Source of the DNA: Actinomycetota bacterium
GTDB taxonomy: Bacteria > Actinomycetota > Aquicultoria > Aquicultorales > JAMCWL01
Direction of reading: 5' to 3'
Assembly (NCBI GenBank): GCA_023481285.1
Contig: JAMCWL010000001.1
Location: 1,539-65,538 of the forward strand
DNA length: 64,000 bases
Part shown: positions 616 to 60,186 of the stretch, one piece after another
Layout of the letters: every line of letters begins with the position of its first letter
How positions within the stretch are numbered: the first letter of the stretch is position 1
Position numbers and translations under genes: made by a program
The notes under the pieces: model-generated
What the model saw: only the letters and a program-made list of their open reading frames with translations
Databases searched by the model: none
Told to the model about the DNA's origin: nothing

Positions 616-1236
616 TTATATACCAGGCGTTTTGCTCCTAAAAAAGACAATTTCTCTCATCAACCGCTTTCTGTCCTTTCCGGGAATAACACCCTCTTCA
701 ATGTATTTGCAATATCTCAGCACTTGCACAGACGGTCGCATTCCAAGCAGACCAAGAACATGGCCGCGGTCGACAAGGCCGTGCGGTTGCTTAGGACTCC
801 TATCGAGATATGCGCTCATGCTGCACCATGGGTACTGATCGGGAGATGCGACCAGTCCGACGACTACCGGATTAAGGTGGACGTATCTTGTGGCTTCAAG
901 CAAATGGGCATCCGTTTCGATAATGCTCGCTTTATACCGTCCCTGAAAGAGATGGCCGATTCGTGTGTAAATTCGATTAAAGTACTTGGCATAGCGTAAA
1001 TTTAGAGTGTGCATTATCCGCGAGAGCGGCGCTTCATCGGTCTTTATGATGAGATGGGTGTGGTTTTTCATAAGGCAGTATGCAAGGAGCCTGAACTCGT
1101 AAAGATTCTTGCTCGCTTTGATAGTATCCAAATAAAAGAGGCGATCGTCATCGGTGAGAAAGACATCCTCTCGGTTATCTCCTCTAGTGTATGCATGGTA
1201 TATGGCCCCTTTATACTCGATCCGCGGCTTTCTCAT
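616..1236 (-). mobile_element. REP-associated tyrosine transposase (RayT; IS200/IS605 TnpA-like Y1 HUH enzyme)
   Basis: 206-aa ORF with an HUH-type motif (MKNHTHLII) and a downstream conserved Tyr region (ATRYVHLNP), typical of Y1_Tnp/COG1943. Flanked on both sides by palindromic repeats. Confidence 0.85.
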
Positions 1237-22751: not shown

Positions 22752-25652
22752 ATGAAATTTATGAATCTACTCGCGAACCTCAATCCCGTTCAGCAAGAAG
22801 CGGTGACGCACGTCGGGGGGCCTCTCCTCATCCTCGCCGGGGCCGGAAGCGGTAAGACCAGAATTTTAACTCACAGGATCGCTTATTTAATTGGCGAGCT
22901 GGGCGTCGACCCATTCGAAATCCTGGCGATCACCTTCACCAACAAGGCGGCCGACGAGATGAAAAACCGGATTGAGGCTCTGGTAGGCCCGGTTTCTAGG
23001 CGGATGTGGGTCTCAACTTTCCACTCGGCATGCGTGCGCATCCTCCGGCGGGAGATAGAGAGGCTCGGTTATACCCGTCGCTTCACAATTTACGATGAGA
23101 GCGACCGGAAACGGCTGATCTCCTCCTGCCTTGGCGATCTCGACGTCGATCCGAAGCGCTTTCCCGCGTCGAAGGTGATGGTGGCGATCTCGAACGCCAA
23201 GAATCATCTTATCGACGCGGAGACCTACTCTGAAAGCGTGCGGACCTATCAGGAGCGAACGTTCGCCGAAGTATACCAGCTCTATCAGGAGAGGCTCTAC
23301 AAGAACAACGCGCTCGATTTTGACGATCTCATCATGGTGAGCGTCAACCTTTTTACGCTTTTCGCAAGCGTTCGCGAGGCTTACCAGGAGATGTTCAAGT
23401 ATATTCTGGTTGACGAGTACCAGGATACCAACGAGGCGCAGTACAGCCTGATCAATTTACTCGCCGCCAAGCATCGCAATCTCTGTGTTGTTGGGGATGA
23501 CGACCAGTGTTTACCAGCTGGGACTTTGGTTTCTACCGATAAAGGTGATGTGCCAATTGAAAAAATTGAGAAAGGCCAGAATGTTTTAACGGCGGTTGGA
23601 AGAGGCGGAGTATCTGTCAGTAAAGTAACTAACGTTTCTAAGACAACCAAAACAGCAAGACATATTACGTTTATAACAAAATCGGGCGCTAGAGTTACGG
23701 CAACCGATAACCACAAGATGTTTGCTCTAGTTCCCCAAAAATCAAATCGTGAGCACCATTACGTTTATTTAATGCACAAGCAAGAATTAGGCTGGAGAAT
23801 TGGAGTTACCAATGACCTTGAGTTTTGTCATCGAGCATATGCTCCTAAGTCGAAGAACTTATTGAAAAACCCTCAGTTATTGCATTTGCTAAGCTTAGAA
23901 ACTAGCGACGAAAATACGTGCCGAGAAATTGAGGCTCTTGGTTTCAAGCTAGAGAAAGCAAAAAAAGGTAAGAGGTTGAGAGTTACAAGCACCGATATAA
24001 AAAAACTTGAAGAAATCGCTTATGAAGTAGCAGAAAAAACGGATGCTTTACCTGAGCTTAATTTCAAGCTAGGAATTTTTAATCGACAAAGCTTGCCGGC
24101 CTTAATTATGCCAGCCGGTAATGTAAAAGAAGGCTTTTGGTTGCCAATATCGAGAAACGATCAAATTTTTTATGACGAAGTGGTTGAGATTGAAGAAGAG
24201 ATCAAAAGCGAACCAGTATATGATTTAGAGGTCGAGCGAACCCATAACTTTATTGCAAATGGAGTAGTGGTTCATAACTCGATCTATAAATTCCGTGGGG
24301 CAGATATCCGCAATATCCTCAATTTCGAGGAGGATTACCCGGACGCGAAGGTGATCAAGCTCGAGCAGAACTACCGCTCGACTAAGACGATCCTGGAAGC
24401 GGCGAACCGGATCGTCGCCAACAACAGGGGCCGCAAGGAGAAAAGCCTGTGGACCGCGAATGACGATGGCGAACCGGCCGTCCGCTTTGAAGGGGAGAAT
24501 GAGCACGAAGAGGCGACGTTCGTGGTGACCGAGATAGAGTCACTTGTGCGAAACGGGCGGACCTACAACGACATGGCCGTCTTTTACCGCACCAACGCCC
24601 AGTCGCGCGTCTTTGAGGAGATTTTGCTCCGGTACGGCGTGCCCTACCGTGTCATCGGGAGCTTGCGCTTCTACGAGCGCCAGGAGATAAAGGATATCCT
24701 CGCCTACTTGAGGGTGGTCGTCAACCCGGCCGATTCCGTCTCGATAAGGCGAATTATCAACGTGCCAAAGCGGGGCCTCGGCAAGGCTGCTGTGGCCTGG
24801 GTCGATAACTTTGCGGTCAAGGAGAAGGTGGATTTCTGGTCGGCGCTACGAAGAGTGGATGAGATTGTCCAGCTCACCCCGGTGGCCCGTAAGGCGGTCG
24901 CTTCCTTTGTCTCGCTCATCGACGGGCTGCGCGCGTTGCTGGAGGGCGACGGGGTAAACATCGAAGAGTTCATGCGCTCGCTTATCGACCGGACCGCCTA
25001 CGTGGCCGCGCTCGAGGAGGAGCGGACGGTTGAGTCGCAGAGCCGGGTGGAGAACGTTCAGGAGCTTGTCTCGGTCGTCCAGGAGTTCGAGCGAGAAGGA
25101 GAGAGGACGCTCGATGAGTTTCTGGCCGAGGTCTCTCTTATCAGCGATATAGACGAGCTTCCGGAGGAAGAGAATGCCGTCACTTTGATGACGCTTCATA
25201 ATGCGAAGGGCCTCGAATTTCCGGTCGTCTTCATCGCCGGCATGGAGGATGGCGTCTTTCCCCATATTCGATCGGTGACCGACATGGACGAGTTGGAGGA
25301 GGAGCGCCGCCTCTGCTACGTCGGCATCACCAGGGCCCAAAAGAGGCTCTATCTGACAAACGCCCTGTCTCGCAACTTATGGGGCGGTACCAGTTGGAAT
25401 ACTCCGTCGCGCTTTCTGAGGGAAATCCCGGAAGAACTCACAACCAGGTGCGAGCGGAAGGTTGATGCTAAGGCTATACCCAAGGTTGATCTCGATTACG
25501 AAGTTGGAGACCGGATCAAGCACCCCCAGTTTGGAGAGGGTTTGGTCACCGCCGTCAGCTCTCCCGGACAGATCACCGTCCTCTTCTCGGAAGGCGAAAA
25601 GACGCTTCACCTCAGCTACGCACCCCTGGAGAAACTAGAGACCAGAAAGTAG
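22752..25652 (+). CDS. pcrA: ATP-dependent DNA helicase PcrA/UvrD, interrupted by an intein
   Basis: Motif I AGAGSGKT, II VDEYQDT, III split as VVGDDDQ | SIYKFRGAD, V/VI (LMTLHNAKGLEF, VGITRA). 966 aa, of which 257 are intein. Confidence 0.93.
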   Translation: MKFMNLLANLNPVQQEAVTHVGGPLLILAGAGSGKTRILTHRIAYLIGELGVDPFEILAITFTNKAADEMKNRIEALVGPVSRRMWVSTFHSACVRILRREIERLGYTRRFTIYDESDRKRLISSCLGDLDVDPKRFPASKVMVAISNAKNHLIDAETYSESVRTYQERTFAEVYQLYQERLYKNNALDFDDLIMVSVNLFTLFASVREAYQEMFKYILVDEYQDTNEAQYSLINLLAAKHRNLCVVGDDDQCLPAGTLVSTDKGDVPIEKIEKGQNVLTAVGRGGVSVSKVTNVSKTTKTARHITFITKSGARVTATDNHKMFALVPQKSNREHHYVYLMHKQELGWRIGVTNDLEFCHRAYAPKSKNLLKNPQLLHLLSLETSDENTCREIEALGFKLEKAKKGKRLRVTSTDIKKLEEIAYEVAEKTDALPELNFKLGIFNRQSLPALIMPAGNVKEGFWLPISRNDQIFYDEVVEIEEEIKSEPVYDLEVERTHNFIANGVVVHNSIYKFRGADIRNILNFEEDYPDAKVIKLEQNYRSTKTILEAANRIVANNRGRKEKSLWTANDDGEPAVRFEGENEHEEATFVVTEIESLVRNGRTYNDMAVFYRTNAQSRVFEEILLRYGVPYRVIGSLRFYERQEIKDILAYLRVVVNPADSVSIRRIINVPKRGLGKAAVAWVDNFAVKEKVDFWSALRRVDEIVQLTPVARKAVASFVSLIDGLRALLEGDGVNIEEFMRSLIDRTAYVAALEEERTVESQSRVENVQELVSVVQEFEREGERTLDEFLAEVSLISDIDELPEEENAVTLMTLHNAKGLEFPVVFIAGMEDGVFPHIRSVTDMDELEEERRLCYVGITRAQKRLYLTNALSRNLWGGTSWNTPSRFLREIPEELTTRCERKVDAKAIPKVDLDYEVGDRIKHPQFGEGLVTAVSSPGQITVLFSEGEKTLHLSYAPLEKLETRK
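23508..24278 (+). other. Intein (257 aa) inserted in helicase motif III of PcrA
   Basis: Starts CLPAGTLV (block A). TATDNHKMF (block B, TxxH). Ends VYDLEVERTHNFIANGVVVHN followed by +1 Ser. No LAGLIDADG/HNH motifs recognised. Segment is visibly AT-rich versus the flanks. Confidence 0.85.
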
Positions 25653-26128: not shown

Positions 26129-27655
26129 ATGATATGCCATATAAAGAGGGGTATTGTAGCTGCCATTTTGGCGCTGGTGCTTGTCTTCAGCGCTGTCGTC
26201 CCTACACTGGCGTCAAGCCACCGTGAGGCACCGCAGATAGCCAACAACCCGGTCGCCGACAATACAGACCTCTACGTCTTTCGGAGCCCAGATCGGCCTG
26301 ACTCTGTGAGCATAATCGCCAACTATTTCCCATTCGAAAATCCGGCGAACGGCCCTTTGTTCTATAAGTTCGCCGACAATGTCCGCTACACGATCACCGT
26401 CTTCAACAACAAAGGCGATACCATAGTCTACGAGTTCAAATTTACCACGAAGATAAGGGACGACGGTACCTTTCGATACAACAAAGATAATGGGCGCATA
26501 GACTCTCTAACCGCGAAGGCGTTCAACATCCGGCAGACCTACACCGTCACCCGGACCAGGAAAGGCTCGAGCACCACATTGGGAACCGATCTCCCGACCC
26601 CTCCGGTCAACATCGGGCCTAAATCCACGCCCAACTATGAGTCGTTGGCAAGCCAGGCGATATCCGGTCTGGACGATAACATCAAGGCCTTTGCGGGCCA
26701 GCGGGACGACCCCTACTTTGCCAACGATGGGGCCTTTTACGATCTGCTCAACACGCCTATTCCGCCCGGGAGCAAGGGGCCGGGCACAGACGCCTATGCC
26801 GGTTTCAATGTCCAAACGATCGCTTTGCAAGTGCCTATTACACAGCTCGTAGAGTCTCCAAACGGCATCATTCCGAGTAACCCATCCGATCCAAACGCTG
26901 TGATAGGTGTTTTTGCAAGCGCTGAGTTGCAAAGCGGCACGATACCCTCCAGTTCCGGTAAGGACTCGGCTAAGAATGGCAAAGTTAGCGGAAGCTGGTT
27001 ATCGAGCCTGTTAAAGCCCATCTTCGGAAGACCGCGCGGTACTACAACTACCACTACTACGACTACGACGACAACCCCGGGCGGTGCGAGTTTTACGCAG
27101 GTCTCTCGCGTGGGCCAACCGCTCGTCAATGCGTTGATCCTTCCGCTCAAGAATAAGGATCGTTGGAACCAGAGCAATCCACGGGACGACAGCCAGTTCA
27201 ACAATTCTTATCGAAACCCATTGCCGGCCGACTATCTCAAAACGTTTATAGGCATTACGCCGCCTTCTATGCCCCGCACCGATCTTACCAAGATCCTACT
27301 TGAAGGCTTCTCGCTAAACCAGGTGGGCGTTAACTTCTCGAACCAGGGTGGCGGTCCTAAGCAGGCCGACCTGATTAGGTTGAATGTTGCGGTTCCTCCA
27401 AAGAAGCCGACGGATCCAGGCTTCAATCGACTGGGCCTCTTCCGCGGCGATCTCGCGGGCTTTCCGAACGGGCGGCGGCTGGAGGATGACGTCATGGACA
27501 TCATGATGCAGATATTCGCAGGAGCAACTCCTTTCTCCTCCGACCTTAACGTGCCGCCCAACAGCACGCTCAGCGACGGCGTCGATGGGAACGACGTGCC
27601 CTTCCTAAGCAGTTTTCCGTATGTTGGAACGCCGCGCCCTGCCTTCGGAGGGTAA
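26129..27655 (+). CDS. Secreted DUF4331-family protein, paralog A (contains a Thr12 run)
   Basis: Signal peptide then SSHREAPQIANNPVADNTDLYVF, the hallmark N-terminus recalled for DUF4331. AGGAGG 8 nt upstream of the ATG. Confidence 0.85.
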   Translation: MICHIKRGIVAAILALVLVFSAVVPTLASSHREAPQIANNPVADNTDLYVFRSPDRPDSVSIIANYFPFENPANGPLFYKFADNVRYTITVFNNKGDTIVYEFKFTTKIRDDGTFRYNKDNGRIDSLTAKAFNIRQTYTVTRTRKGSSTTLGTDLPTPPVNIGPKSTPNYESLASQAISGLDDNIKAFAGQRDDPYFANDGAFYDLLNTPIPPGSKGPGTDAYAGFNVQTIALQVPITQLVESPNGIIPSNPSDPNAVIGVFASAELQSGTIPSSSGKDSAKNGKVSGSWLSSLLKPIFGRPRGTTTTTTTTTTTTPGGASFTQVSRVGQPLVNALILPLKNKDRWNQSNPRDDSQFNNSYRNPLPADYLKTFIGITPPSMPRTDLTKILLEGFSLNQVGVNFSNQGGGPKQADLIRLNVAVPPKKPTDPGFNRLGLFRGDLAGFPNGRRLEDDVMDIMMQIFAGATPFSSDLNVPPNSTLSDGVDGNDVPFLSSFPYVGTPRPAFGG

Positions 27656-27986
27656 TTCCTGAGATTCGGTCCGCCGAGATCCTTGTGGATGTGAGCTAAA
27701 AAGAGCGGTCGCCGGGAAAACCGACCGCTCTCTCACTAAAGAGCGGTAAGGATATTACCAGACCCCGGATAAGACAACCCGTACGAAGACCCCTGAATCC
27801 GGAGAGACGTGTAGCGTGTTTATTTACCGTACCAGTGGGTAGCTGCATGACGTTGCGCGTCGGCATTAAAGGCGTCGGCATTGAAAACAAGTTGGAGCTC
27901 GAAGTGCAAATTTGGCCACTTGTTTATTGATGCAAGCGCCATCCGACTCAAAGACTGTTTTGCAAGTATATTCGCGAGGGAGTGAG

Positions 27987-29414
27987 ATGCACGTGAGGAT
28001 GATGAGGAAAAGTGCAAGGAGGGGGATCGTGGCCGCGCTGATAGCGTCAAGCCTAATTGTCGGCGGCGTCGCTCCCGTTTGGGCGTCAAGCCACCGCGAA
28101 GCGCCACGCGTGGCCGAGGACCCCGCCGCCGACAATACCGACCTTTATGTCTTTCGCAGTCCCGACAACCCGGATATGGTGAGTATTATCGCCAACTTTG
28201 TTCCGTTCGAGAATCCCGCCAACGGTCCTCTCTTCTACAAATTCAGCGATGACGCCCTCTATCAGATCACCGTCTTCAACAACAAAGGCGATACCATAGT
28301 CTACGAGTTCAAATTTACCACGAAGATAAGGGACGACCACACATTTCGCTACAACAAGGACAATGGGCGCATAGACTCTCTAACCGCTAAGGCGTTCAAC
28401 AACCGGCAACTCTACACCGTCACCCGGCTTAAAAACGGCCAGGACAGCGTGTTGGGAACCGATCTCCCGACCCCTCCGGTCAACATCGGGCCTAAATCCA
28501 CGCCCAACTATGAGTCGTTGGCAAGCCAGGCGATATCCGGTCTGGACGATAACATCAAGGCCTTTGCGGGCCAGCGGGACGACCCCTACTTTGCCAACGA
28601 TGGGGCCTTTTACGATCTGCTCAACACGCCTATTCCGCCCGGGAGCAAGGGGCCGGGCACAGACGCCTATGCCGGTTTCAATGTCCAAACGATCGCCATC
28701 CAGGTTCCCATCACACAGTTGGTGCAATCACAAAACGGCGTAATTCCGACGAATCCGTCTGATCCGAACTCGGTCATCGGTGTTTTTGCAAGTGCCAGCC
28801 GGCCGCGGACGCGAGAGCTCAAGCCCGGCAACGGCGCTACGAACTCGGGTGACAATATTCAGATCTCAAGAGTTGGCCAACCGCTCGTCAATGCGTTGAT
28901 CATTCCTCTCAAGGATAAAGATCGTTGGAACCAGAGCAACGCGCTGGATGACGGCCAGTTCAACATCTTCTACCGCAACCCGCTGCCGGCCGATTATGTC
29001 AAAACGTTTCTTGGTGTGGATACGCCTTCCATGCCCCGGAACGACCTGACCAAAATCTTGCTCGAAGGTTTCTCGCTTAACCAGGTCGGGATTAACTTCT
29101 CAAACCGAGGGCCCGGTCCTAAGCAGGCCGACCTGATTAGGTTGAATGTTGCGGTTCCTCCAAAGAAGCCGACGGATCCAGGCTTCAATCGACTGGGCCT
29201 CTTCCGCGGCGATCTCGCGGGCTTTCCGAACGGGCGGCGGCCTCAGGACGACGTCATGGACATCATGATGCAGATATTCGCAGGAGCAACTCCTTTCTCC
29301 TCCGACCTTAACGTGCCGCCCAACAGCATGCTCAGCGACGGCGTCGATGGGAATGATCTGCCTTTCCTGGACACCTTCCCGTTTCTCGGAACGCCGCACC
29401 CGGGAGCCTCATAA
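27987..29414 (+). CDS. Secreted DUF4331-family protein, paralog B
   Basis: Start moved to ATG 27987 (MHVRMMRKSARRG.. signal peptide, GAGGGAG upstream). Collinear with paralog A. Confidence 0.85.
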   Translation: MHVRMMRKSARRGIVAALIASSLIVGGVAPVWASSHREAPRVAEDPAADNTDLYVFRSPDNPDMVSIIANFVPFENPANGPLFYKFSDDALYQITVFNNKGDTIVYEFKFTTKIRDDHTFRYNKDNGRIDSLTAKAFNNRQLYTVTRLKNGQDSVLGTDLPTPPVNIGPKSTPNYESLASQAISGLDDNIKAFAGQRDDPYFANDGAFYDLLNTPIPPGSKGPGTDAYAGFNVQTIAIQVPITQLVQSQNGVIPTNPSDPNSVIGVFASASRPRTRELKPGNGATNSGDNIQISRVGQPLVNALIIPLKDKDRWNQSNALDDGQFNIFYRNPLPADYVKTFLGVDTPSMPRNDLTKILLEGFSLNQVGINFSNRGPGPKQADLIRLNVAVPPKKPTDPGFNRLGLFRGDLAGFPNGRRPQDDVMDIMMQIFAGATPFSSDLNVPPNSMLSDGVDGNDLPFLDTFPFLGTPHPGAS

Positions 29415-29476: not shown

Positions 29477-30292
29477 ATGAGAGTATTCATATTTACGAGC
29501 GGCGCGCCCGGCGAGGATTCGGCAAAGACCGGACCCTTTTGGAAGGAGTTCGACGATCGCTACGCCGATAAGTTCATCCGACACCTTACCGACAATCCGG
29601 ATGTCTGCACGGGCTGCGGTAAGGCATGCAACCACTGCCGGGCCGGTTATAAACTCGACTACGCCGACCGGATAGCGGGAACGCACGTTCATCCGGACAA
29701 GCTTCTTGCTTTTGTGGACGATCCTTATAAATATCTGCCGAAGGTTGTTCGTTCGCACGATGTAACGCTGGCCATCAATATCCACCAGGACTTACTTCTG
29801 GAGATCCCCGAGCTGGCTGCCCGCGCCGGCTCAAAGGCCTTGATCGTGCCGGTCGAGGATCCCGATTGGCTTGATCGCTGGCTCAGAGAGGAGCTGGCCG
29901 ATATCTGCAAAGAAAAGGGTCTGGAATTCGCCGCACCGAAGCCATTCTGCTCGCTCGACGAAGGAGAAGGCAAGATTATCGACGAGTTCATAGAGGAGTT
30001 CAGGATGGGTAAGCCTAAGCTTGAGCTTAAGATAAAGGATGGTATCGTGAGGTCGGCCAGGGTGTTGAGGAGCGCTCCTTGCGGGGATACTTACTTCGTC
30101 GCTCACAACATCGTCGGTGTTCCGGTGGGCGAGGAGCTTATGCATAGAGCGGCGAAGTACTGGCACAGTTATCCCTGTATAGCGTCGATGAAAATGGACC
30201 CGGAATTCCAGGACACCATTCTCCACCGGGCCGGCCACATACTTTATGAGGTCGTTGACCGGGCGGTGCGTGCCGCTGGCAAAGGTTCTTAG
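29477..30292 (+). CDS. Cys-rich protein, possibly DUF166/PF02593-like; function unknown
   Basis: 271 aa; CTGCGKACNHC cluster, APCGDTYF, HSYPCIAS. Family assignment is from memory and weak. Confidence 0.7.
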   Translation: MRVFIFTSGAPGEDSAKTGPFWKEFDDRYADKFIRHLTDNPDVCTGCGKACNHCRAGYKLDYADRIAGTHVHPDKLLAFVDDPYKYLPKVVRSHDVTLAINIHQDLLLEIPELAARAGSKALIVPVEDPDWLDRWLREELADICKEKGLEFAAPKPFCSLDEGEGKIIDEFIEEFRMGKPKLELKIKDGIVRSARVLRSAPCGDTYFVAHNIVGVPVGEELMHRAAKYWHSYPCIASMKMDPEFQDTILHRAGHILYEVVDRAVRAAGKGS

Positions 30293-33204: not shown

Positions 33205-34959
33205 CTACGCCGCAACTTTTCTGAGCCTTGACTCGTACATTTCAATTATTTCTTCTTCCGTCGTCGCGTCTTCGGGGGCTTTGTCCTCGCGGTACCTGCC
33301 GGTGAACCTGGGAAAGCGGATGGCGAGGCCGCTCCCTTCACGGAAACGGTTGTATCCGCAGGTGTGGATGGGGCTAAGAGTGATCTCGGCGCCGATTATC
33401 TCGAGGACGAGAGAGGGTTCGAACCAAACGTCAGGACGTTCCTTGGCGTCCACCCTCGGACTTACATGTTCGAGAACGTAAGGGCTCAACCGGCCCGGCA
33501 ATTCGGCCAGGTCTTTATCGGTAAGCCCGGCCCCCAGCTTGGTCACCGACTTAAAGGTGTCTGTTTTATCATCGTAGCAAGCCATCAGGAGCGAGCCGTA
33601 AACCCCCGCCCGCCTCCCCCGGCCATAGTAGCCGCCGACCACGACCAGGTCCGCTGTATCGGTCATCTCGCTCCTGTACTCGCGCTTGTACTTGATCCAG
33701 AGCCACCCTCTGGCGCCCGCCCGGTAGATGGATTCACTCCCCGTTGATTTGGCGACGACTCCCTCGCAGCCTTCCTCAACGGCCTTCTCAAAGAAGCTTT
33801 CGAGCTCGTCGGTGCCCCTTACGATCTTGTTCTGCGCCAAGTTGACGGCGTCTCCGATGCGGAGCGAGCGCGCCAACGCTTCCCTTCGCTCGGGATAGGG
33901 CTCGCCGGTGTAATCGCGACCCTCGGCGTAGAGGCAGTCAAAAAAGAAGACGGAGGCCGGCAGCTCCTTGGCCGCCTCCGCTACGCCGTACTTCCGCCGC
34001 CTGCGCATCAGCTCCTGAAACGGGCGCATGTCTCCCGTTGCGGGGTTCATCGCAACTATTTCGGCTTCAAGAATTGCGGCCGTCGCCGCTATCGAATTCC
34101 TCGCGAGCGCCACCACGTCTGGAAACTGGCCTGTGATGTTCTCCAGGCGGCGAGAGAAGAGCATTATTCGCTTGCCGTTCTTATGCACCTGAACCCGTTC
34201 GCCGTCGTACTTGTACTCGGCTACAAACTCCGCGCCCAGCTTCTCCGCCGCTTCTTCCGGCGCGTGGACCCGCTCGGCCAACATGGGCCTGATGGGCTTT
34301 CCCAGCTCTATGTGAAAATCTCTAATCTTTGAAACCCCTTTGGTTGCCAGGGCGGAGGCAACCTCTCCCAGGTCCGAGGTTATGTTATACGCCCTCTCGA
34401 TAAGCGGGCGCGCTTCGGGACCCTCACCGTACGTAAGCGCCAAGGCGTCGAGCATCGTCATGTCGGCGACGCCCAAACGTAGCTTGCCGGTCACTATGCG
34501 CACTATATATTTGGCCTCGGTAGGCGTGGCGTTTGAGAGCAATGAGGCCAGAAGCTTAACCTTCTTTTCGGCGCTGCCCGGTCCGGCGGTGTGCGCCACC
34601 TCGTCGAGAACCTTGTAGACGCGGTCGACGGTCAATGGCTTTTTCCTCTCCGGTGCCGCTCGCTCAAGCTCAAGACTGGCGGTCAGGCCGAGGTCCCCCG
34701 TCTTGCGAAGGTCTCTGTTGATCTCTTCGTCGGTGAGCCCGGTCGCGATCGAGACCGATTTAACGGCCATCTTCTCCGCCATGCCGATTTCTATGCCGGC
34801 GAAGTCCGGGTAGAGCTTGCCCTGGGTAAGGTAGACAATCTTTGGCAGGTCCCTGGCGGGCGTGGACTTGACAAGATCAACGAGGTACTTGGTCATCTCA
34901 ATTCGCTTGCTGGTCTTTTCGATCCTCTGGTAAGCGTCGGCCAGGATGCTGAAGTCCAC
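33205..34959 (-). CDS. ATP-dependent DNA ligase (three-domain Lig1/archaeal-type)
   Basis: 584 aa; adenylation motif I EYKYDGERVQ, DBD plus NTase plus OB order. GGAGGA upstream of a GTG start. Confidence 0.9.
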   Translation of the reverse strand: MDFSILADAYQRIEKTSKRIEMTKYLVDLVKSTPARDLPKIVYLTQGKLYPDFAGIEIGMAEKMAVKSVSIATGLTDEEINRDLRKTGDLGLTASLELERAAPERKKPLTVDRVYKVLDEVAHTAGPGSAEKKVKLLASLLSNATPTEAKYIVRIVTGKLRLGVADMTMLDALALTYGEGPEARPLIERAYNITSDLGEVASALATKGVSKIRDFHIELGKPIRPMLAERVHAPEEAAEKLGAEFVAEYKYDGERVQVHKNGKRIMLFSRRLENITGQFPDVVALARNSIAATAAILEAEIVAMNPATGDMRPFQELMRRRRKYGVAEAAKELPASVFFFDCLYAEGRDYTGEPYPERREALARSLRIGDAVNLAQNKIVRGTDELESFFEKAVEEGCEGVVAKSTGSESIYRAGARGWLWIKYKREYRSEMTDTADLVVVGGYYGRGRRAGVYGSLLMACYDDKTDTFKSVTKLGAGLTDKDLAELPGRLSPYVLEHVSPRVDAKERPDVWFEPSLVLEIIGAEITLSPIHTCGYNRFREGSGLAIRFPRFTGRYREDKAPEDATTEEEIIEMYESRLRKVAA

Positions 34960-35151: not shown

Positions 35152-36138
35152 ATGCATACCTCAAAGAGGCTGGCGATAATCGCATTGGCCTGGCTTTCCG
35201 CCTTTGCCGTCACCGATTTCCGTGCCGCTTCGAAGGAAGGACCCTACATGCCTAATCGCAGGGAAGAAAGACCTTTCCTTCGCCACCGGCTCGGAGAGTC
35301 GGTAACCGTGGAAACAAAGGCCGGCGCTGCAAAATTGGTACCAATAAATAGTATAGGGGCGGCGGGGGGAGCGGCACCCGGCCAGGCATGGCTACCACCA
35401 ACCACAGGAATTGAGGCGTACCGCGAACGTTTTGAGACGCCCGAGCGTCGCGTCGCCTCGCGGGTGGTTAAGCCGCCTCCTCCTCCACCACCTCCGCCTC
35501 CACCGCCGCCGCAGCCGTTACCCTTTGCACCGGTGCCGGTCGAGAAGATTACGAGCGGCGCTCCTGGAAAGAAGCGCGCGGCACTCACTTTTGACGTCGA
35601 GAAAGACGCCGGCGCCGTCTCGCAAATCCTTGCTGCACTGAAGGGAGCGAATGTTAAGGCCACATTCTTTGTCACCGGCTCGTGGGGTGCGGCATATCCA
35701 GAGCTTTTAAAGCAAATAGCCGCCGAAGGACACGAAATAGCGAACCACAGCTATAACCACCCAATGTTCACGCGCCTTCCAGACGAGGGGGTCTTCTTCG
35801 AGCTAACGGCGACCGAGTCACAGATATATGCGGTAACTCAGCGCCCGCCGGCAAGGTTTTTCAGGCCACCGTATGGAAATCACGACGACAGGATTCTCAA
35901 CCTCGCCGCCTCTAAAGGGTTCAAGACGGTTGTTTGGAACAACGATCCCTCAGATTGGAAGCCCTGGCAGACTTCGGAGAACGTCTTCGCGCTCGTTACA
36001 ATGTACGTGGCCGACGGTGACATCATCTTGCTCCATTCAAGCAGCCAGGCGACGGGGGGAGCGCTTCCGGGCATTCTCGAAAGCCTTAAGTCCATGGGCA
36101 TCCGCCAGGTTACCGTCTCCGAGCTTCTGGTCCCTTAA
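35152..36138 (+). CDS. Secreted polysaccharide deacetylase (NodB homology) with a Pro14 linker
   Basis: Signal peptide, PPPPPPPPPPPPPP, then LTFDVEKD..FFVTG..GHEIANHSYNHP..RPPYG. Confidence 0.85.
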   Translation: MHTSKRLAIIALAWLSAFAVTDFRAASKEGPYMPNRREERPFLRHRLGESVTVETKAGAAKLVPINSIGAAGGAAPGQAWLPPTTGIEAYRERFETPERRVASRVVKPPPPPPPPPPPPPQPLPFAPVPVEKITSGAPGKKRAALTFDVEKDAGAVSQILAALKGANVKATFFVTGSWGAAYPELLKQIAAEGHEIANHSYNHPMFTRLPDEGVFFELTATESQIYAVTQRPPARFFRPPYGNHDDRILNLAASKGFKTVVWNNDPSDWKPWQTSENVFALVTMYVADGDIILLHSSSQATGGALPGILESLKSMGIRQVTVSELLVP

Positions 36139-36840: not shown

Positions 36841-38996
<2,156 letters not shown>

Positions 38997-52105: not shown

Positions 52106-52328
52106 TCTCTTGGTCTCCTAGTACCTTGGTACCTTGGTATCTTGGTTTCTTGGAATCTTGGAATCTCTGGGTGCTTATTGGAGGCGCTATAAACGACCGC
52201 CGTCGGCCGTCCGCCGTCCGCCGCTATAAAGCTTGGATATATGAGGCGCTATTCGCGGCGGATGGGGTTGCCAAGAAACCAAGAAACCAGGAAACCAGGA
52301 AACCAGGAGGGCGGCGGTCGTCGGTCGC
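52103..52328. repeat. Core-A composite element with a long mixed left arm (TAGTCTCT..TTGGTACC..TTGGTTTC..TTGGAATC), core A, AAGAAACC/AGGAAACC right arm and GGCGGTCG outer motif
   Basis: Fills the entire gap between the convergent permease and S8 genes. Confidence 0.85.
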
Positions 52329-55300
52329 TAATACGGCATCACCCACCTCGTGGCTGCATTGTTCCAGTAGGGGGTGAAGTAGACCATGACCGGATTGCCG
52401 AGCTTGACGCCGTTTGACTGGAATATCCAGATGCCGGTAAACCCCCAGCCGTAGTCGTAGACGGCGGCGGCATCTTCCTTGCGGTCGCCGTTGAAGTCAC
52501 CGGGGATGAAGGTGGATCTTGCGTAATTCCAGTAAGGAGAGGCGTAAATGAACTGTGGATAGGCAAAGGCGTTTTTCCCCGGTAGACCGGTTGCTCTGAA
52601 GGTGAATACCCCGGTTGAGGTGCCGCCATAATTATAGAAGGCGATGATGTCCGTCAGTCCGTCTCCATCCACATCTCCGGTCAAGAAGGAGGTCGAGGGA
52701 TAGTACCAGTGGTTGGAGATGAAGGAGAGCTCCGGGTACTTCAGTGAGCCGTCCGAGTTTAATTCAAAGACCCAGAGGCCGGTCGTCGACCCCCCGTAGT
52801 CGTATGCCGCAACGACTTTGGATTGCGTCCCGCTTTTTGTGGATAGGAGCCTCGTTCTACCCCAATCCCAGTAGGGAGAGAAGAAGACCAGCCTTGGGTA
52901 TCTGAAGGTGCCATCGGGGTTCTGCTCGAAAACGAATACCCCGGTTGAGGTGCCTCCGTAGGTATAAAAAGCGAATAATTCGTCTTTGCCGTCCCCGTTA
53001 AAATCACCGGCGGTAAGCTTGGTGTTATCCCAGGACCAGTGCGGGGAGTAGAAGACCTGAACCGGCCCGCTGAAGCTGCTCCCGGTTGATCTCCATAACC
53101 AGAGGGCTGAAGTGGGCCCCCCGTAGTTATAGAGGGCGAGCACGTCGGCTTTTCCATCCCCGTTGAAATCGCCGGATACCGGCTTCGCCCGGGAAGCGTC
53201 GAAGTAGCCCCGACCGCTTGTCCACCACATACCGGGGGCGAAGGTCAGTCCCAGCGGGGTGTAAAAGCTGCCGACCGTCTTGAATGCCCATGCACCGGCC
53301 GTCGCCCCGCCATAGCTGTAGAAGGCTATGGCATCCGATCGGGCGTCACCGGTCACGTCGTTTACCACTACACCGGTGGCCGAAGCAGTATTCGAGTAAT
53401 CGGAGTTGTTCCCGGCGGCGTCATAAGCCCTCACCCGGTAGTAGACGACGCTCGTGCCCGGGGCATCGGTGAAGCTTGTAGCGACCGTCATACTGATTTG
53501 GCCCCAGTTGACCAGGTCGAAACTCCTTTCCACCTTGTAGCCGGCGACGCCGATATTGTCCGTCGAGGCGCCCCATGAGAGATTAAAGTAGGCCCCGGAG
53601 CGGGTGACGGTAAGGCTTGGAGGGGCGCTCGGAGGGGTGACGTCCGGCACGAACCCGGAAGCGACATTTGAGTAGCCGGAATAGTTGCCGGCCGAGTCGT
53701 AAGCTCTCACCCTGTAGTACCAGGTTCTGTTCTGGTCGGCCGGGGCTATCTGGTCCGAGTAGCCGGCCGCCGGGGGATTGCCCGTCACGATCCCCCTAAT
53801 TACCCAGCCGGTCGAGCCGTCCGCACTCCTGTCAATCTCGTAACCGGAGACACCGACCGGTCCGGTCGAAGCGGTCCACGAGAGATTGAGATTGCCACCC
53901 GAAAGGCTGACGGCGAGGTTCGCCGGGCTGGTGGGCGGTGTTGTAGATGTGAAGTCGAAAGCGTCGACGGAGACGCTGTAGCCGCTTGAAGATGGGTTTT
54001 TACTGCCCGTTACAGTTATCTGTAACGTATGAGATACCTGTAACGTATGAGATACGGCAGGCAGGCCTGAGGCTTGAAAAGCCAGCGACTGCCATCTGTT
54101 TTGCGAAGAGTAAAGATCAACGTTTCCCTGAGAAATCCCGTCGAGAGTGACGCTTACTATGCCCTGAGAGGGCGACTTGAGGGCTACCCAATTCACCGTC
54201 GATCCCGAGAAAGCGAGAGTCGCCGTCGCGCCGGTCGAGGCCGATGTATTATATGTGCCTCCACTTGCTCCGCCGTTTGATATAGCGCTCCAGTTGCCGC
54301 TGTACGTTATCCCGGACCAGCTCTCCTCAACCGATCCCATAGGTGTCGAGACGGCTCCGTCGGCGTTGACCCTTCCATAGCCGTAGTAAACGTCCCAGCC
54401 GGTGGTTCCCATATCGACGGCGGTCTCCATGACCAGGCGAGCGATCTGGTCGCCCGTCTTCGAGGGATATTTCGAGGCGGCGAGAGCCGCCACGCCCGAT
54501 GCGAAGGGCGTCGACATCGACGTTCCGTCGGCCCACGCATAGTTATTCTGCGGGTAGGTGCTCAGGATATTTACGCCGGGGGCGGCCAGATCGATCGACT
54601 GGCCGTAGTTCGAGAAAGAAGCCCTGCTTTCGGTGCCACCGCTCAGTTGAGTGGCGGCGACGCCGACGGCGCCGGGGCTTCCCGCTGGATAAAGAGTTAT
54701 ATCCGCCCCGTCATTGCCGGCCGCCGCAATAACGGCCGCCCCTTTTCCCCTCGCGTAAATGACCGCGTTGTCGATGGTCGTGGATTGGCCGGGCCCGCCG
54801 AGGCTCAAGTTGATGACTTTGGCCCCGTTGTCCGCGGCATACTGGATGGCGCTGGCTATGTCGCTGTCGTAACCGCTCCCGCTGGCGTCGAGTGCCTTGA
54901 TCGCCAGGATTCTCGAGTTCCAGGCGACGCCCGCCACGCCTATCCCATTGTTGGTGGCCGCGGCGGCGATGCCCGAGACGTGGGTTCCGTGGCCATGGTC
55001 GTCCATGGGTTCGTAATTGCCGGCTATGTAGTTATAGCCCTTTATAACCTTCATACCCAGCGGGAGGTCGGGGTGGTTGTAGTCGACGCCCGTGTCGATG
55101 ACGGCTATCGTGACTCCGTCCCCGAGCGCCGAGTTCCAGGCCGCCTCGCAACCGATGCGCGGAGGACCCCACTGGTATCCGTAGTAGGGGTCGTTCGGGA
55201 CCGCAATCGCAGACCGTATGTAGTTAAGCTCAGCGTACTCGACTTTTGGATTGGACTTGAGAAGCTCGACCGCCGCTTCGGGAGTCGTACTCCCGGGGAT

Positions 55301-55579
55301 TTTCACCACCCGGACGTCCGACACCGGTATCTGCTTGACCTGGGAGGCGCCCACCTGCGCTATCTCCGTGCGCGCTTCGGCGTCACCGACGTTCGCCTTG
55401 AACTTAACGAGTATTTGATCGGGGGCTCGCTTAGGCCCGTTAACTCCGAGCCTTTTGACGCTCAAATGGCGTTTGCTCGGAGGGCTTTCAGCCGATACCA
55501 CCTTGAAGGAAGCGAATGAGAAGAGCAAGAGGAGCGTGAGGAGCAGGGCGAGCAGTAGACTTACGGGCCTACTTCTCAT
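52328..55579 (-). CDS. Secreted subtilisin-like serine protease (S8) with I9 propeptide, beta-sandwich domain, two Fn3-like domains and a six-blade FG-GAP-like C-terminal module
   Basis: Signal peptide. Triad motifs VIDTGVD, HGTHVSG, GTSMSTP. Six repeats built on GDFNGDGxxD..YxYGG..W.F..SPYW. Confidence 0.9.
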   Translation of the reverse strand: MRSRPVSLLLALLLTLLLLFSFASFKVVSAESPPSKRHLSVKRLGVNGPKRAPDQILVKFKANVGDAEARTEIAQVGASQVKQIPVSDVRVVKIPGSTTPEAAVELLKSNPKVEYAELNYIRSAIAVPNDPYYGYQWGPPRIGCEAAWNSALGDGVTIAVIDTGVDYNHPDLPLGMKVIKGYNYIAGNYEPMDDHGHGTHVSGIAAAATNNGIGVAGVAWNSRILAIKALDASGSGYDSDIASAIQYAADNGAKVINLSLGGPGQSTTIDNAVIYARGKGAAVIAAAGNDGADITLYPAGSPGAVGVAATQLSGGTESRASFSNYGQSIDLAAPGVNILSTYPQNNYAWADGTSMSTPFASGVAALAASKYPSKTGDQIARLVMETAVDMGTTGWDVYYGYGRVNADGAVSTPMGSVEESWSGITYSGNWSAISNGGASGGTYNTSASTGATATLAFSGSTVNWVALKSPSQGIVSVTLDGISQGNVDLYSSQNRWQSLAFQASGLPAVSHTLQVSHTLQITVTGSKNPSSSGYSVSVDAFDFTSTTPPTSPANLAVSLSGGNLNLSWTASTGPVGVSGYEIDRSADGSTGWVIRGIVTGNPPAAGYSDQIAPADQNRTWYYRVRAYDSAGNYSGYSNVASGFVPDVTPPSAPPSLTVTRSGAYFNLSWGASTDNIGVAGYKVERSFDLVNWGQISMTVATSFTDAPGTSVVYYRVRAYDAAGNNSDYSNTASATGVVVNDVTGDARSDAIAFYSYGGATAGAWAFKTVGSFYTPLGLTFAPGMWWTSGRGYFDASRAKPVSGDFNGDGKADVLALYNYGGPTSALWLWRSTGSSFSGPVQVFYSPHWSWDNTKLTAGDFNGDGKDELFAFYTYGGTSTGVFVFEQNPDGTFRYPRLVFFSPYWDWGRTRLLSTKSGTQSKVVAAYDYGGSTTGLWVFELNSDGSLKYPELSFISNHWYYPSTSFLTGDVDGDGLTDIIAFYNYGGTSTGVFTFRATGLPGKNAFAYPQFIYASPYWNYARSTFIPGDFNGDRKEDAAAVYDYGWGFTGIWIFQSNGVKLGNPVMVYFTPYWNNAATRWVMPY
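54020..54055. repeat. Perfect in-frame 18-nt tandem duplication inside the S8 gene (encodes VSHTLQ VSHTLQ)
   Basis: CTGTAACGTATGAGATAC x2 on the plus strand. Confidence 0.9.
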
Positions 55580-56058
55580 TTAGGAATACACCTCTCGCAG
55601 GGGGCCGTTCCAAAGACAAATAAGCCGGAAGTTGGTCCGTAGAAGCACGCCGGCGGCCCGCCCTTATTTTGCGTCCAATGCTCGAAAGTTTTGTGAAGCG
55701 GCCGGTGTAGCGGTCGGACATAGCGGGCTCCTAGAGTCAGACCAAACCCTGGAGAGTTATTCCCAATCTTTGTGTATGACTAAACAGTCTTGTAATTTCT
55801 AATCACTTTCTATAGAGTCATTCTCTTATCAAGCCCTTAAGTTATGGAATGCACCGAAATGGCTGTAGAGGTTGGTTGTCCATCGCATTTATGATTGCCG
55901 GCGTCATTTGTACGAGGCGTTTGGGCATCAACCACCTGTAGTTTCCTATAGTTTGTGGATTTGCTATAAAAGAGTTATTGCGGTATTGGGTTTCGCTGAT
56001 TCTGCTTTGTTGGTGGGCCTTCTGGCTCCGAGCGACCGGTTGACGGCTCAAAAGGAGG

Positions 56059-57654
56059 ATGTTCATGAAGTTGTTGAGATTATCTTTAGCATCCGCTCTT
56101 CTACTCACCAGCGCTCTTCTTCAGGCGGGTGACGCAGGAGCTACGCTCTATACGGTGGACAGCCAGCTAAAGCCGAAAGCCGCCGTTTCGGCGGCCAAAA
56201 TCGACGGTTTCATCAGGTACAAGAAGGCCGATAGCCCTCTCATCGGGCTCGGGCAAGCCTGGGTGGACGCGGGCAACAAGTATGATGTAAACGCGGTCTA
56301 CCTTTTTTCGCACGCCATTCTTGAGTCGGGCTGGGGAACGAGCCAGATAGCGACGGACAAGAAGAACATCTACGGCTATGGTGCCTACGACCGAGATCCT
56401 TACGGGTACGCGATGGCTTTTAACAGCTTCCAGGAGTGCATCGACTACGTCACCGGAAAGATCAACGCGAATTATCTTACTCCGGGAGGCGCTTACTATA
56501 ACGGGGCGACCTTGCGGGGAATGAACGTCAGATATGCGACCGATCCCAACTGGGGAAGCAAGATCGCCGGGATCATGAATCTCTTTGCCGATCCAATCGG
56601 CGCCTATCCGGCCGCGGTGCCGCCGAGCGGTTTCCCGGGCATCGCCTCTTCGGATGCGGTCGCGGTCTACAACTACGGCAGCGGCACTTCTGCCATCTGG
56701 AATTTCAGAACGGTCAGCGGACGGCAAGGGCTTACCCTGGCGCCTTATGTGGCCTGGCTTAGCGGTCCCCAGGGGCTGGATCCGGTATTCGTCAAATTCG
56801 TTACCGGCGATTTTAATGGCGACGGGGTAACGGACCTTATCGGCCTCTATGATTACGGCGGGCAGGTGGCGGCTTTCTGGCTTTGGAAGGGCAAATCAAA
56901 TGGAGCGCTCGAAAATCCGGTCAAGGTATTTTACATGCCGAGCTGGGAGGTCTCGCAGACCAAGCTGGTCTCCGGCGACTTTGACGGCGACGGCAAGAAC
57001 GAAGTCATGGCGTTTTATAGCTACGGGGGAACCAAGGTTGGCGTCTATCTCTTTAAAATGAACGCGAGCGGCGTCTTCGACAACCCCCGTCAAATCTTCT
57101 ACTCCCCTTACTGGGATTGGGGGCGGACGACGCTGCTTTCAATGAAAGCCGGCTCCCGCGCCGACGTGGTCGCCGCCTACAACTACGGCGGGACGGAGAT
57201 GGGGCTCTGGCAGTTCGGCCTTGACGCCAATGGCAATCTCATCTATCCGCAGCGGGTTTTCTACTCGCCTTACTGGGACTACAGCCGGTCGACCTTCCTT
57301 GCCGGTGATGTAAACGGAGACGGCTATGGGGATATCGTCGCCGTTTACAACTACGGCGGGACGAGCACCGGCGTCTTCACCTTTTACCGGACCGACGCCA
57401 CCGGTGCGAGCTACAGCTACCCCCGCATGGCCTTCCACTCACCATACTGGGCTTATGCGAGATCGAGCTTCCTCGCCGGGGACTTCAACCGTGATGGAGC
57501 CTCCGACCTCCTCGCTTTCTATGACTATGGTGGGGGGAGGACGGCCGCCTGGCTCTTCGGCGCCGACGGGTCGAGCCTTCGCTATCCGTCAATGATCTAC
57601 GAGACCCCCTTCTGGGACAATGCCAGAACGACCTGGTTAAAAAGTAGCAATTAG
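56059..57654 (+). CDS. Secreted peptidoglycan hydrolase (glucosaminidase/GH73-type domain) fused to the same six-blade FG-GAP-like module
   Basis: Signal peptide. HAILESGWG..YGYGAYD..YATDPNWG. C-terminal about 335 aa collinear with the S8 C-terminus. AGGAGG 7 nt upstream. Confidence 0.88.
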   Translation: MFMKLLRLSLASALLLTSALLQAGDAGATLYTVDSQLKPKAAVSAAKIDGFIRYKKADSPLIGLGQAWVDAGNKYDVNAVYLFSHAILESGWGTSQIATDKKNIYGYGAYDRDPYGYAMAFNSFQECIDYVTGKINANYLTPGGAYYNGATLRGMNVRYATDPNWGSKIAGIMNLFADPIGAYPAAVPPSGFPGIASSDAVAVYNYGSGTSAIWNFRTVSGRQGLTLAPYVAWLSGPQGLDPVFVKFVTGDFNGDGVTDLIGLYDYGGQVAAFWLWKGKSNGALENPVKVFYMPSWEVSQTKLVSGDFDGDGKNEVMAFYSYGGTKVGVYLFKMNASGVFDNPRQIFYSPYWDWGRTTLLSMKAGSRADVVAAYNYGGTEMGLWQFGLDANGNLIYPQRVFYSPYWDYSRSTFLAGDVNGDGYGDIVAVYNYGGTSTGVFTFYRTDATGASYSYPRMAFHSPYWAYARSSFLAGDFNRDGASDLLAFYDYGGGRTAAWLFGADGSSLRYPSMIYETPFWDNARTTWLKSSN

Positions 57655-59416: not shown

Positions 59417-59800
59417 ATGCGAGAAGAAGCGACATGGTGGCTTAGGGCCAGCGACAGGGATAAGCAAGCGGCGGAGAAACTTCTAAACTGGGACCTCTTC
59501 GAGAGTTCGGCTTTTCACGCCCAGCAATCCGCCGAGAAGGCGTTAAAAGCTTTACTAATCAGATACGGTCGAGAGGCGCGCACTCATTCATGCGTTAGCA
59601 TACTGAAGCTGCTGAAGATGGAGGGGCTGGATGTCTCATCGGTGGAGCTTTCTGCTAAAAGGCTCGACAGCCACTATATACAATCGAGATATCCCAATGG
59701 AGCCGGTGGTCCGCCGGAAGACCTATATTCAAAAGAAATCGCCGAGGAAGCAATGGAATGTCTAGGCCGGATTCTGAGTTTAGTGCATCAAAATATTTAG
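59417..59800 (+). CDS. HEPN domain protein (toxin-like partner of MNT)
   Basis: 127 aa; FHAQQSAEKALKALL and LDSHYIQSRYPNG motifs of PF05168-type HEPN. Confidence 0.75.
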   Translation: MREEATWWLRASDRDKQAAEKLLNWDLFESSAFHAQQSAEKALKALLIRYGREARTHSCVSILKLLKMEGLDVSSVELSAKRLDSHYIQSRYPNGAGGPPEDLYSKEIAEEAMECLGRILSLVHQNI

Positions 59801-60186
59801 ATCAAGCGCTTATTAATTCATTTCTTGATAATCTTGAGCAGCGCATTAAGGTAAAGGCCTTGATCGTTTTCGGCTCTAGAGCAAAAGGCGACGCCCTTTT
59901 AACAAGCGATTACGATATCGCAGTAGTCTCGGACGATTTCAAGGGTATGAAAAGGTTCGAGCGAACCTATTTATTGCTCGATGTCTGGGCCGCCGATCTT
60001 GCTTTGGAAGCCGTCGCCTATACAGAAGAGGAATTTATGAAAGCGACGGGCATGTTGGTGTGGGACATCTTGGAAGACGGAGTAGCTTTCAAAGACAAAG
60101 GGGTCTTCCGAGAGCGGAAAAAGCTCCATGACGATCTTAAGGCGGCCGGCAAACTTAAGAAAGTCGAAGGCGGCTGGGCGTTTTAA
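59758..60186 (+). CDS. Minimal nucleotidyltransferase (MNT) domain protein
   Basis: 142 aa; FGSRAKGD..SDYDIAV (GS-x10-DxD pattern). 43-nt overlap with the HEPN gene. Confidence 0.75.
   Translation: MSRPDSEFSASKYLDQALINSFLDNLEQRIKVKALIVFGSRAKGDALLTSDYDIAVVSDDFKGMKRFERTYLLLDVWAADLALEAVAYTEEEFMKATGMLVWDILEDGVAFKDKGVFRERKKLHDDLKAAGKLKKVEGGWAF

Follow-up and report, generated by a model that had tools for sequence, protein, structure and literature searches.

The question raised by this locus is why two secreted hydrolases, one a cutter of peptides and the other of glycans, should be encoded back to back and end in the same C-terminal module, and what that module might do for them. The genes lie in a 64,000-nucleotide stretch of an Actinomycetota genome assembly of the order Aquicultorales (contig JAMCWL010000001.1 of GCA_023481285.1), the whole of which we refer to as the window. 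A 1083-aa subtilisin-family (S8) protease is encoded on the minus strand (52328-55579; Peptidase_S8 E=3.3e-58) and, divergently from it, a 531-aa GH73 N-acetylglucosaminidase on the plus strand (56059-57654), which is identical (100%) to database entry P0001 (MCL5290951.1). A check of the open reading frames (ORFs) returned the coordinates, strands and lengths of the original prediction, which had been made from this DNA alone, and Pfam agreed with its S8 and GH73 assignments (Peptidase_S8 E=3e-58, Glucosaminidase E=4e-18); its use of the word muramidase for the second enzyme was loose, as the family was right but GH73 enzymes are N-acetylglucosaminidases. The explanation that we favour, with a probability of roughly 0.55, is that the shared module is a lectin that anchors both enzymes to a wall glycan, probably the producer's own, and that it is the cell-wall-binding domain typical of this lineage. 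We are considerably more confident that the module binds glycans and targets the envelope in some way.

The modules of the two enzymes (protease aa 741-1083, 52331-53359, minus strand; glucosaminidase aa 191-531, 56629-57651, plus strand) align collinearly over 338 aa with 52% identity (E=2e-111), much more than chance would give and in line with the earlier description of a collinear unit of about 340 aa and six repeats on both proteins. The six repeats in each carry the motifs GDFNGDGxxD, [AV]xYxYGG, W.F and SPYW[DN]W. When each module was cut into its six blades and all 36 blade pairs were compared, blades of the same number were 43, 49, 63, 48, 60 and 46% identical, which in every row was above the off-diagonal values (24-50%). 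The two modules therefore match blade by blade, as had been proposed, and we conclude that the six-blade unit predates their divergence. In both modules, blades 2, 3, 5 and 6 have a Ca2+-type loop, DxNGDGxxD; it is missing from blade 4 of both, again as predicted, and is additionally degenerate in blade 1 of both (GFPGIASSD and DVTGDARSD). Loss of the blade 4 loop is common to all of the close relatives P0002-P0010 and is therefore a trait of the subfamily, not a peculiarity of this pair. A third copy of the module was sought in the window and none was found.

The repeat had been described as belonging to no named family, and this did not hold. Both proteins score above the Pfam thresholds for FG-GAP (PF01839; 54.3 bits for the protease and 51.7 bits for the glucosaminidase, cut-off 22.1) and for FG-GAP_3 (PF13517; 62.8 and 51.1 bits, cut-off 26.9). 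The architecture itself is abundant and annotated in databases, and the fold family is already known: a profile of the module alone matched 25,646 cluster representatives at E<=1e-3, 5,836 at 1e-10 and 717 at 1e-30.

A model of the module built with AlphaFold2 (AF2) on a 43-sequence alignment (pLDDT 92.3, pTM 0.90) has 24 strands arranged as six four-stranded blades, so that the beta-propeller fold that had been anticipated was recovered. Comparison with the Protein Data Bank (PDB) using Foldseek gave one close match, 9oee_A ('S. griseus TUA bound UmbA4 complexes'; template modelling (TM) score 0.92, root mean square deviation 2.4 Å, 26% identity, E=5.8e-22), and the same entry was also matched by sequence alone (phmmer E=1.9e-28). 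All other Foldseek matches had TM scores of 0.37-0.54, and these comprised CRTAC1, fungal and Photorhabdus fucose lectins, YesW/YesX and integrin alpha.

These comparisons bear on the possibility that the propeller does not bind glycans, and is instead an integrin-like domain for Ca2+-dependent protein interaction or scaffolding (with an S-layer or partner protein, for example) or a domain concerned with stability or export, in which case the shared module and the adjacency of the genes would carry no meaning for targeting. The FG-GAP propellers of integrin alpha chains do bind proteins, and their blades open with the Ca2+-type loop Dx[DN]x[DN]GxxD, as do blades 2, 3, 5 and 6 of the window modules. 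However, integrin propellers have seven blades and not six, their TM scores were only 0.41-0.49, and the window modules sit in the context of bacterial wall enzymes; integrin, CRTAC1 and YesW all matched poorly (TM 0.37-0.49), compared with a score of 0.92 for UmbA4. Non-wall domains (EB_dh, Sortilin and dockerin) are the partners of some family members, we found no regulatory element joining the two genes, and their pairing is not conserved (see below), all of which would suit a module without targeting function. Set against this are the bias of the fusion partners towards wall enzymes and the equivalence of the propeller to wall-binding domains in related enzymes, and we regard a non-glycan role as very unlikely.

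In Streptomyces coelicolor, UmbA4 ends in a six-bladed beta-propeller lectin of the family '6BP-4', which binds the cell-wall teichuronic acid of the target and is the receptor-binding part of an umbrella toxin (PMC13274773). The ligand is rich in N-acetylated sugars, and UmbA4 reads a specific teichuronic acid at species-level specificity (PMC13274773). Binding is through two canonical pockets, one on blade 4 and the other between blades 5 and 6, and the substitutions Y551A, N633A and W668A reduce toxicity (PMC13274773). The module is thus not novel in the sense first suggested, as the structure and the ligand of one of its homologues are both known, an outcome that had been named beforehand as telling against the proposal.

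The UmbA4 lectin (PDB 9OEE) and the window modules are alike in having six blades of about 55-60 aa with DxNGDGxxD loops, and in belonging to secreted proteins of Actinomycetota, the ligand of UmbA4 being a Gram-positive wall glycopolymer. They differ in that the window modules carry YxYGG and SPYWDW where UmbA4 has YxYxDG and variable loops, in the absence of the Ca2+-type loop from blades 1 and 4 of the window modules, and in the attached domain, which is an active-looking S8 or GH73 domain here and an inactive trypsin-like domain in UmbA4. The likely target also differs, being the wall of the producer for the window modules and that of a competitor for UmbA4. As a separate matter, we considered whether the window holds an umbrella-toxin locus and rejected this, as no trypsin-like, UmbB or UmbC/ALF toxin genes were present among the window ORFs scanned.

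The residues of UmbA4 that matter for toxicity could be placed tentatively on the window modules. The numbering of 9oee_A was deduced to be offset by -31 from that of the paper, as Y520, N602 and W637 all match in the sequence alignments. By motif register, and not by a residue-level structural alignment, Y551 and W668 fall on the first aromatic of the strand-3 W.F motif. The aromatic at this putative ligand-contacting position is kept in both window modules, where it is Trp in blades 4 and 6 (W384 and W498 in the glucosaminidase; W936 and W1051 in the protease), and the N633 equivalent, likewise by motif register only, differs between the two, with Asn in the protease but Ala in the glucosaminidase. 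It can also be seen that in the putative pocket loops (YxYGG..TG[W/F/Y]xF together with SPYWDW) the two modules share 63% identity, compared with 45% elsewhere, and that these loops are identical in blades 3 and 5. This conservation fits a similar ligand for both modules, though the same motifs also hold structural residues.

We then consider what else could retain the two enzymes at the cell surface. Inspection of the sequences gave a Sec-type signal peptide in each protein, no transmembrane segment beyond it and no LPXTG motif. That of the protease (aa 1-30, 55490-55579, minus strand) reads MRSRPVSLLLALLLTLLLLFSFASFKVVSA, with cleavage before E, and is the sole hydrophobic window of the protein. 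SLH, LysM, CWB1/2, SH3b, GW and PG_binding domains were sought in both proteins with Pfam (E<=1) and none was found. Because no established wall-anchoring domain or signal was present, the propeller is the only candidate retention domain in both enzymes. The catalytic domains to which it is joined both appear intact and active-looking, as judged from their motifs. In the protease, PF00082 matches over its full-length profile at aa 153-402 (54374-55123, minus strand; 197.7 bits) and the triad and oxyanion Asn are all in place (DTG D162, HGTH H197, NLS N257, GTSMS S354). In the glucosaminidase, the GH73 domain spans aa 66-174 of the 531-aa ORF (56254-56580, plus strand; PF01832 66.7 bits, cut-off 30.2), and both the catalytic-Glu motif ILESGWG and the YATD motif (RYATDPNW) are present. 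Intact catalytic motifs followed by a C-terminal targeting domain are features that the two proteins have in common with GH73 autolysins and fervidolysin-type S8 subtilases; the fusion of GH73 to this propeller was found in this organism only.

Related enzymes place other domains at the same position. In the S8 subfamily of the window protease the C-terminus is swapped between the propeller, SLH, dockerin/cohesin, CAP and malectin, and the GH73 subfamily of the window enzyme is mostly stand-alone or else carries LysM or PG_binding_1/3. The propeller therefore fills a slot that relatives give to established wall or surface binders. The combination of S8 and propeller recurs in metagenome-assembled genomes (MAGs) of Aquicultorales and Chloroflexi.

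A census of fusion partners points the same way. With a word-indexed search, the module was found fused to NlpC/P60 (about 20 cases), CHAP, M23, Amidase_2/3, Rpf-type transglycosylase, YkuD, 3D, Rv2525c-like, trypsin, M10/M57 and S8 domains. The partners in 30 proteins that match the whole six-blade profile in one stretch were fn3, S8, trypsin, SpoIID, Amidase_3 (P0011, for instance, is Amidase_3 plus module), CHAP, Sortilin/BNR, beta-helix and AbfB, and those in 75 looser relatives were CHAP (11), trypsin (7), Amidase_2 (3), M23 (3) and M14 (2), together with YkuD, NlpC/P60 and Rv2525c-like domains. Peptidoglycan-acting domains are the largest identifiable class and proteases the second. Homology, partner census and slot equivalence together support the proposal that the module targets or anchors both hydrolases, different as they are, in the same way. 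Fusion to YkuD further favours the producer's own wall as the target, because YkuD is a wall-building enzyme that must act there.

Two side observations on the wider family belong here. One of the 30 proteins with the full-length module matches PF03752 (ALF repeats, the repeat type of UmbC) and three carry trypsin, which is an UmbA-like architecture. At L097:36-7088 a protein of at least 2350 aa with seven Beta_helix/NosD stretches, PPC and fn3 ends in the same module (41% identity), so the tag is also carried by very large non-peptidoglycan enzymes or adhesins.

The genomic surroundings of the module were compared at nine independent loci. Four of these lie within 8 kb of genes for surface-glycopolymer synthesis or export (Wzy_C, GT2/GT4, PMT_2, Epimerase_2, DegT, PglD, WbqC, Wzt_C). 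One arrangement, in which an NlpC/P60-module gene is followed by DUF4330, the O-antigen ligase/polymerase-like Wzy_C, GT4 and further GT4/GT2 genes, is seen in three assemblies (L086:8001-16143, L092:1797-11278 and L099:5422-10515) and may be a clue to which polymer the module binds. Another, seen twice, places an S8-module gene between NTP-transferase, epimerase, Epimerase_2, PMT_2 and GT2 genes on one side and a Wzt exporter, GT1, DegT and PglD on the other, and at one locus the order is ftsQAZ, S8-module, then DegT/WbqC/PglD/GT2. The fourth glycopolymer-linked locus (L093:3955-14428, GCA_025355855.1) is a cassette of four module genes in a row, encoding Amidase_3 with two modules and SpoIID (1322 aa), S8 with module, module with M14 and module with YkuD; it is preceded by S8, M23 and Germane genes and followed by Rml-type nucleotide-sugar genes and a Wzt-type exporter. 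As a raw count over nine loci, the association of the module with glycopolymer clusters is no more than suggestive.

Next to the S8-module gene of P0121 is a gene for a protein with PHP, fn3 and the module. This 916-aa protein (L088:11689-14439) has a PHP phosphoesterase domain and lies directly downstream of P0121 within a glycopolymer cluster; a wall-tethered phosphoesterase of this kind could act on phosphodiester-linked wall polymers.

The module also forms paralogue families within single genomes, and one Aquicultorales MAG has at least five module proteins. The module proteins GH73 MCL5290951, NlpC/P60 MCL5291936, stand-alone MCL5291976 and SpoIID MCL5292610 share one accession block and one organism label, from which we judge that the MAG of the window very probably encodes at least five module paralogues, the protease included. 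Families of surface enzymes with one common wall-binding module are well known, and include SLH proteins in Bacillus and Clostridia, the CWB2 'Cwp' proteins of C. difficile, the choline-binding proteins of pneumococcus and the LysM, GW and SH3b autolysins. The module described here resembles the SLH, CWB2 and choline-binding families in that one non-catalytic repeat module is found on many secreted enzymes per genome and in its genomic linkage to glycopolymer genes; it differs in having the fold of a beta-propeller lectin, with a ligand role that is predicted.

Such a role could also be served if the propeller bound peptidoglycan itself, through the acetamido sugars N-acetylglucosamine and N-acetylmuramic acid, as a generic binder equivalent to LysM. 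LysM or PG_binding_1 does occupy the same slot in sister GH73 enzymes, peptidoglycan is the substrate of most fusion partners, N-acetylated sugars abound in the ligand of UmbA4 and the window locus has no glycopolymer cluster nearby. Against it stand the specificity of the characterised homologue for one teichuronic acid, down to the species, the repeated occurrence of the module beside Wzy_C, GT, PMT_2 and Wzt clusters, and the use by sister S8 enzymes of SLH, a binder of secondary cell-wall polymers (SCWPs). We consider binding to peptidoglycan distinctly improbable.

A different possibility is that the lectin is aimed at the envelopes of other organisms, and that the two enzymes are secreted together for bacteriolysis or necromass scavenging. 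They would dock on the wall glycopolymers of foreign cells, in the manner of UmbA lectins, to kill competitors or feed on wall debris. Several observations that weigh against an anchor on the producer's own wall are to be set out with it. The nearest characterised relative, UmbA4, is only 26% identical to the module and is the receptor-binding domain of a weapon directed at competitors' teichuronic acid, not a self-anchor. The alpha-lytic-protease-type trypsins and the M23, CHAP, beta-helix, Sortilin/BNR and AbfB partners, together with the alpha-lytic-protease prodomains found among the family architectures, would suit enzymes for foreign substrates. Five of the nine loci, the window included, show no linkage to glycopolymer genes, with an SLT or LysM neighbour at two of these, and the window pair itself is not beside such genes, the nearest GT2 genes being 37 kb away. 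The contact residues were assigned from motif register, the conserved aromatics could be structural and not ligand-contacting, and binding of a ligand by the hydrolase-fused members is predicted by homology. A peptide-cutter and a glycan-cutter with a common targeting domain are moreover what a lytic cocktail is expected to look like, and the specificity of the two modules, which are old paralogues (52% identity, compared with 67% between the protease module and that of P0002), could have diverged.

Against a foreign target, no umbrella-toxin components and no immunity-like genes are present in the window; the YkuD, M14 and SpoIID fusions beside Germane and ftsQAZ genes point to the producer's wall; and linkage to the producer's own glycopolymer clusters is recurrent. 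The many paralogues per genome are as expected for anchoring families of the SLH, CWB2 and choline-binding kind, and the pocket loops are better conserved between the two modules than is the remaining sequence. We therefore think that a foreign target is unlikely, while taking it as a serious alternative to an anchor on the producer's own wall.

With respect to the glycan genes of the window, we note that the two GT2 genes encode tandem paralogous glycosyltransferases of about 565 aa each (12072-13775 and 13841-15535, plus strand), and that these and a polysaccharide deacetylase (35152-36138) are the only glycan-synthesis genes in the window.

On the anchor explanation, the ligand would be a wall glycan of the producer's own, and any functional coupling of the two genes is likewise an inference. 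The module would be a six-bladed FG-GAP-type propeller lectin, probably stabilised by Ca2+. Both enzymes would leave the cell by the Sec route and, lacking a membrane anchor, a sortase signal and any further domain for wall binding, would depend on the propeller, which would grip a repeating envelope glycan in a multivalent manner through pockets that the YxYGG-x-TG-[W/F/Y] and SPYWDW loops would form. The likeliest ligand would be a secondary polymer of the wall, of the teichuronic-acid or SCWP type, with peptidoglycan strands less likely. Binding would keep the catalytic domains on the producer's own wall, where the GH73 enzyme would act as an autolysin that cuts glycan strands in growth and separation. 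The S8 protease would project from the wall on a stalk of a beta-sandwich and two fn3 domains and, at the surface, cleave wall or surface proteins or extracellular protein.

It is tempting to go further, and we do so tentatively, as we would sooner doubt than accept it: the propeller may be the address tag of an unrecognised wall-sorting system that extends across deep-branching Actinomycetota (Aquicultoria), Chloroflexi and some Clostridia. Its ligand would be a dedicated secondary wall glycopolymer, the product of the recurrently linked Wzy_C/DUF4330/GT4 or PMT_2/Epimerase_2/Wzt clusters. All of the tagged surface enzymes (glucosaminidase, SpoIID, NlpC/P60, amidase, YkuD, M14 and S8) would be displayed on that polymer, and the receptor-binding lectins of Streptomyces umbrella toxins would have been recruited from this housekeeping anchor. 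If the anchor explanation is right, a widespread cell-wall-binding domain (the 5,836 cluster representatives at E<=1e-10) has so far been annotated only as 'FG-GAP/VCBS repeat'; it would give a handle on the organisation of wall enzymes in poorly known monoderm lineages, hint at which glycopolymer clusters make the receptor and connect anchors with a housekeeping role in the wall to the lectins by which umbrella toxins bind their receptors. Such modules could also act as species-specific wall-targeting domains for engineered lysins. A literature search on FG-GAP modules with wall hydrolases found no description of the propeller as a wall anchor of hydrolases or surface proteases.

Whether the two genes form a unit is a separate issue. 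With the modules of P0002, P0003 and P0004 from other MAGs, that of the protease shares 67%, 61% and 57% identity, compared with 52% for the module of its neighbour. The idea that the two modules arose by a recent local inverted duplication was excluded, as the protease module is closer to modules of other organisms; the two are old paralogues. An adjacent GH73 gene was sought beside the S8-propeller relatives P0121, P0122, P0123, P0144 and P0161 (Aquicultorales and Chloroflexi MAGs) and none was found. Likewise, a search of the protein database and a metagenome scan with the whole glucosaminidase gave no second protein with GH73 and module, so that this combination was seen only in this organism. 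The specific pairing is therefore not conserved. A scan of reference genomes, for which the 43-sequence alignment was too diverse and an 11-sequence alignment was used, gave distant relatives only, with at most 33-38% identity, too distant to judge the pairing. Absence of the pair from related genomes had been named in advance as counting against the proposal, and this applies in part: the protease/GH73 pair was found in no other organism, but analogous clusters of module-tagged wall enzymes recur. The divergent pairing is specific to this lineage and could be incidental, and the pair is probably one local arrangement of two family members.

The remainder of the protease accounts for its greater length. 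A Fervidolysin-like N-terminal prodomain (aa 52-119; 55223-55426, minus strand) was above cut-off (PF22148 E=2.9e-14). The catalytic domain is followed by a beta-sandwich domain of jelly-roll or CBM-like form (aa ~410-546; 53941-54352, minus strand; AF2 model m4a9a31982f48, pLDDT 88.7), for which a Pfam scan at E<=1 gave no family, nor did further homology searches and Foldseek comparison. An exact tandem duplication of 18 nt (two copies) falls within this domain (54020-54055, minus strand), encodes VSHTLQVSHTLQ and looks like a recent in-frame slippage event. Two fibronectin type III (fn3) domains come next (aa ~553-644 and ~657-735; 53375-53923, minus strand), identified by an fn3 Pfam match, by similarity to the fn3 domain of chitinase A1 (E=1.5e-6) and by AF2 modelling with Foldseek matches to fn3 tandems. 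In the models, the beta-sandwich and the two fn3 domains look like a spacer stalk ahead of the propeller.

The start of the glucosaminidase gene may need a small revision. A strong ribosome-binding site, AAAGGAGGA, lies upstream of the ORF with its end at 56058, and database entry P0001 is 529 aa long, compared with 531 aa for the ORF; on these two grounds translation probably begins with the ATG at 56065, which gives 529 aa. The divergent intergenic spacer (55580-56064) is 479 nt long, or 485 nt with the revised start. The length of 479 nt was as first stated, but the spacer, which had been called AT-rich, is only moderately so, with a GC content of 43-49% against about 57-60% in the flanking DNA. 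Genes for actinobacterial cell-wall hydrolases are often preceded by a riboswitch or other RNA element; an Rfam search of the spacer for such elements gave no match, and neither a sigma-70 consensus promoter nor repeats or palindromes were detected in it.

The neighbours of the pair are an ABC transporter, DUF1622 and Rrf2, and a HEPN-like ORF paired with a nucleotidyltransferase (NTP_transf_2/Polbeta) lies downstream of the glucosaminidase (59417-60186, plus strand). A role of the locus in anti-phage defence was considered and rejected, as PADLOC gave generic subtilase similarity only. Elsewhere in the window, an IS200-type Y1 transposase is found at the left edge (616-1236, minus strand) and a UvrD/PcrA-type helicase of 966 aa (22752-25652, plus strand) is split by an intein (PF14890 Intein_splicing, aa 267-509). 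Two tandem DUF4331 paralogues of about 500 aa each (26129-27655 and 27912-29414, plus strand) are followed by a DUF166 protein (29477-30292, plus strand). Finally, an ATP-dependent DNA ligase (33205-34959, minus strand) and the NAD-dependent LigA (36897-38996, plus strand) lie within 4 kb of one another and flank the polysaccharide deacetylase gene.

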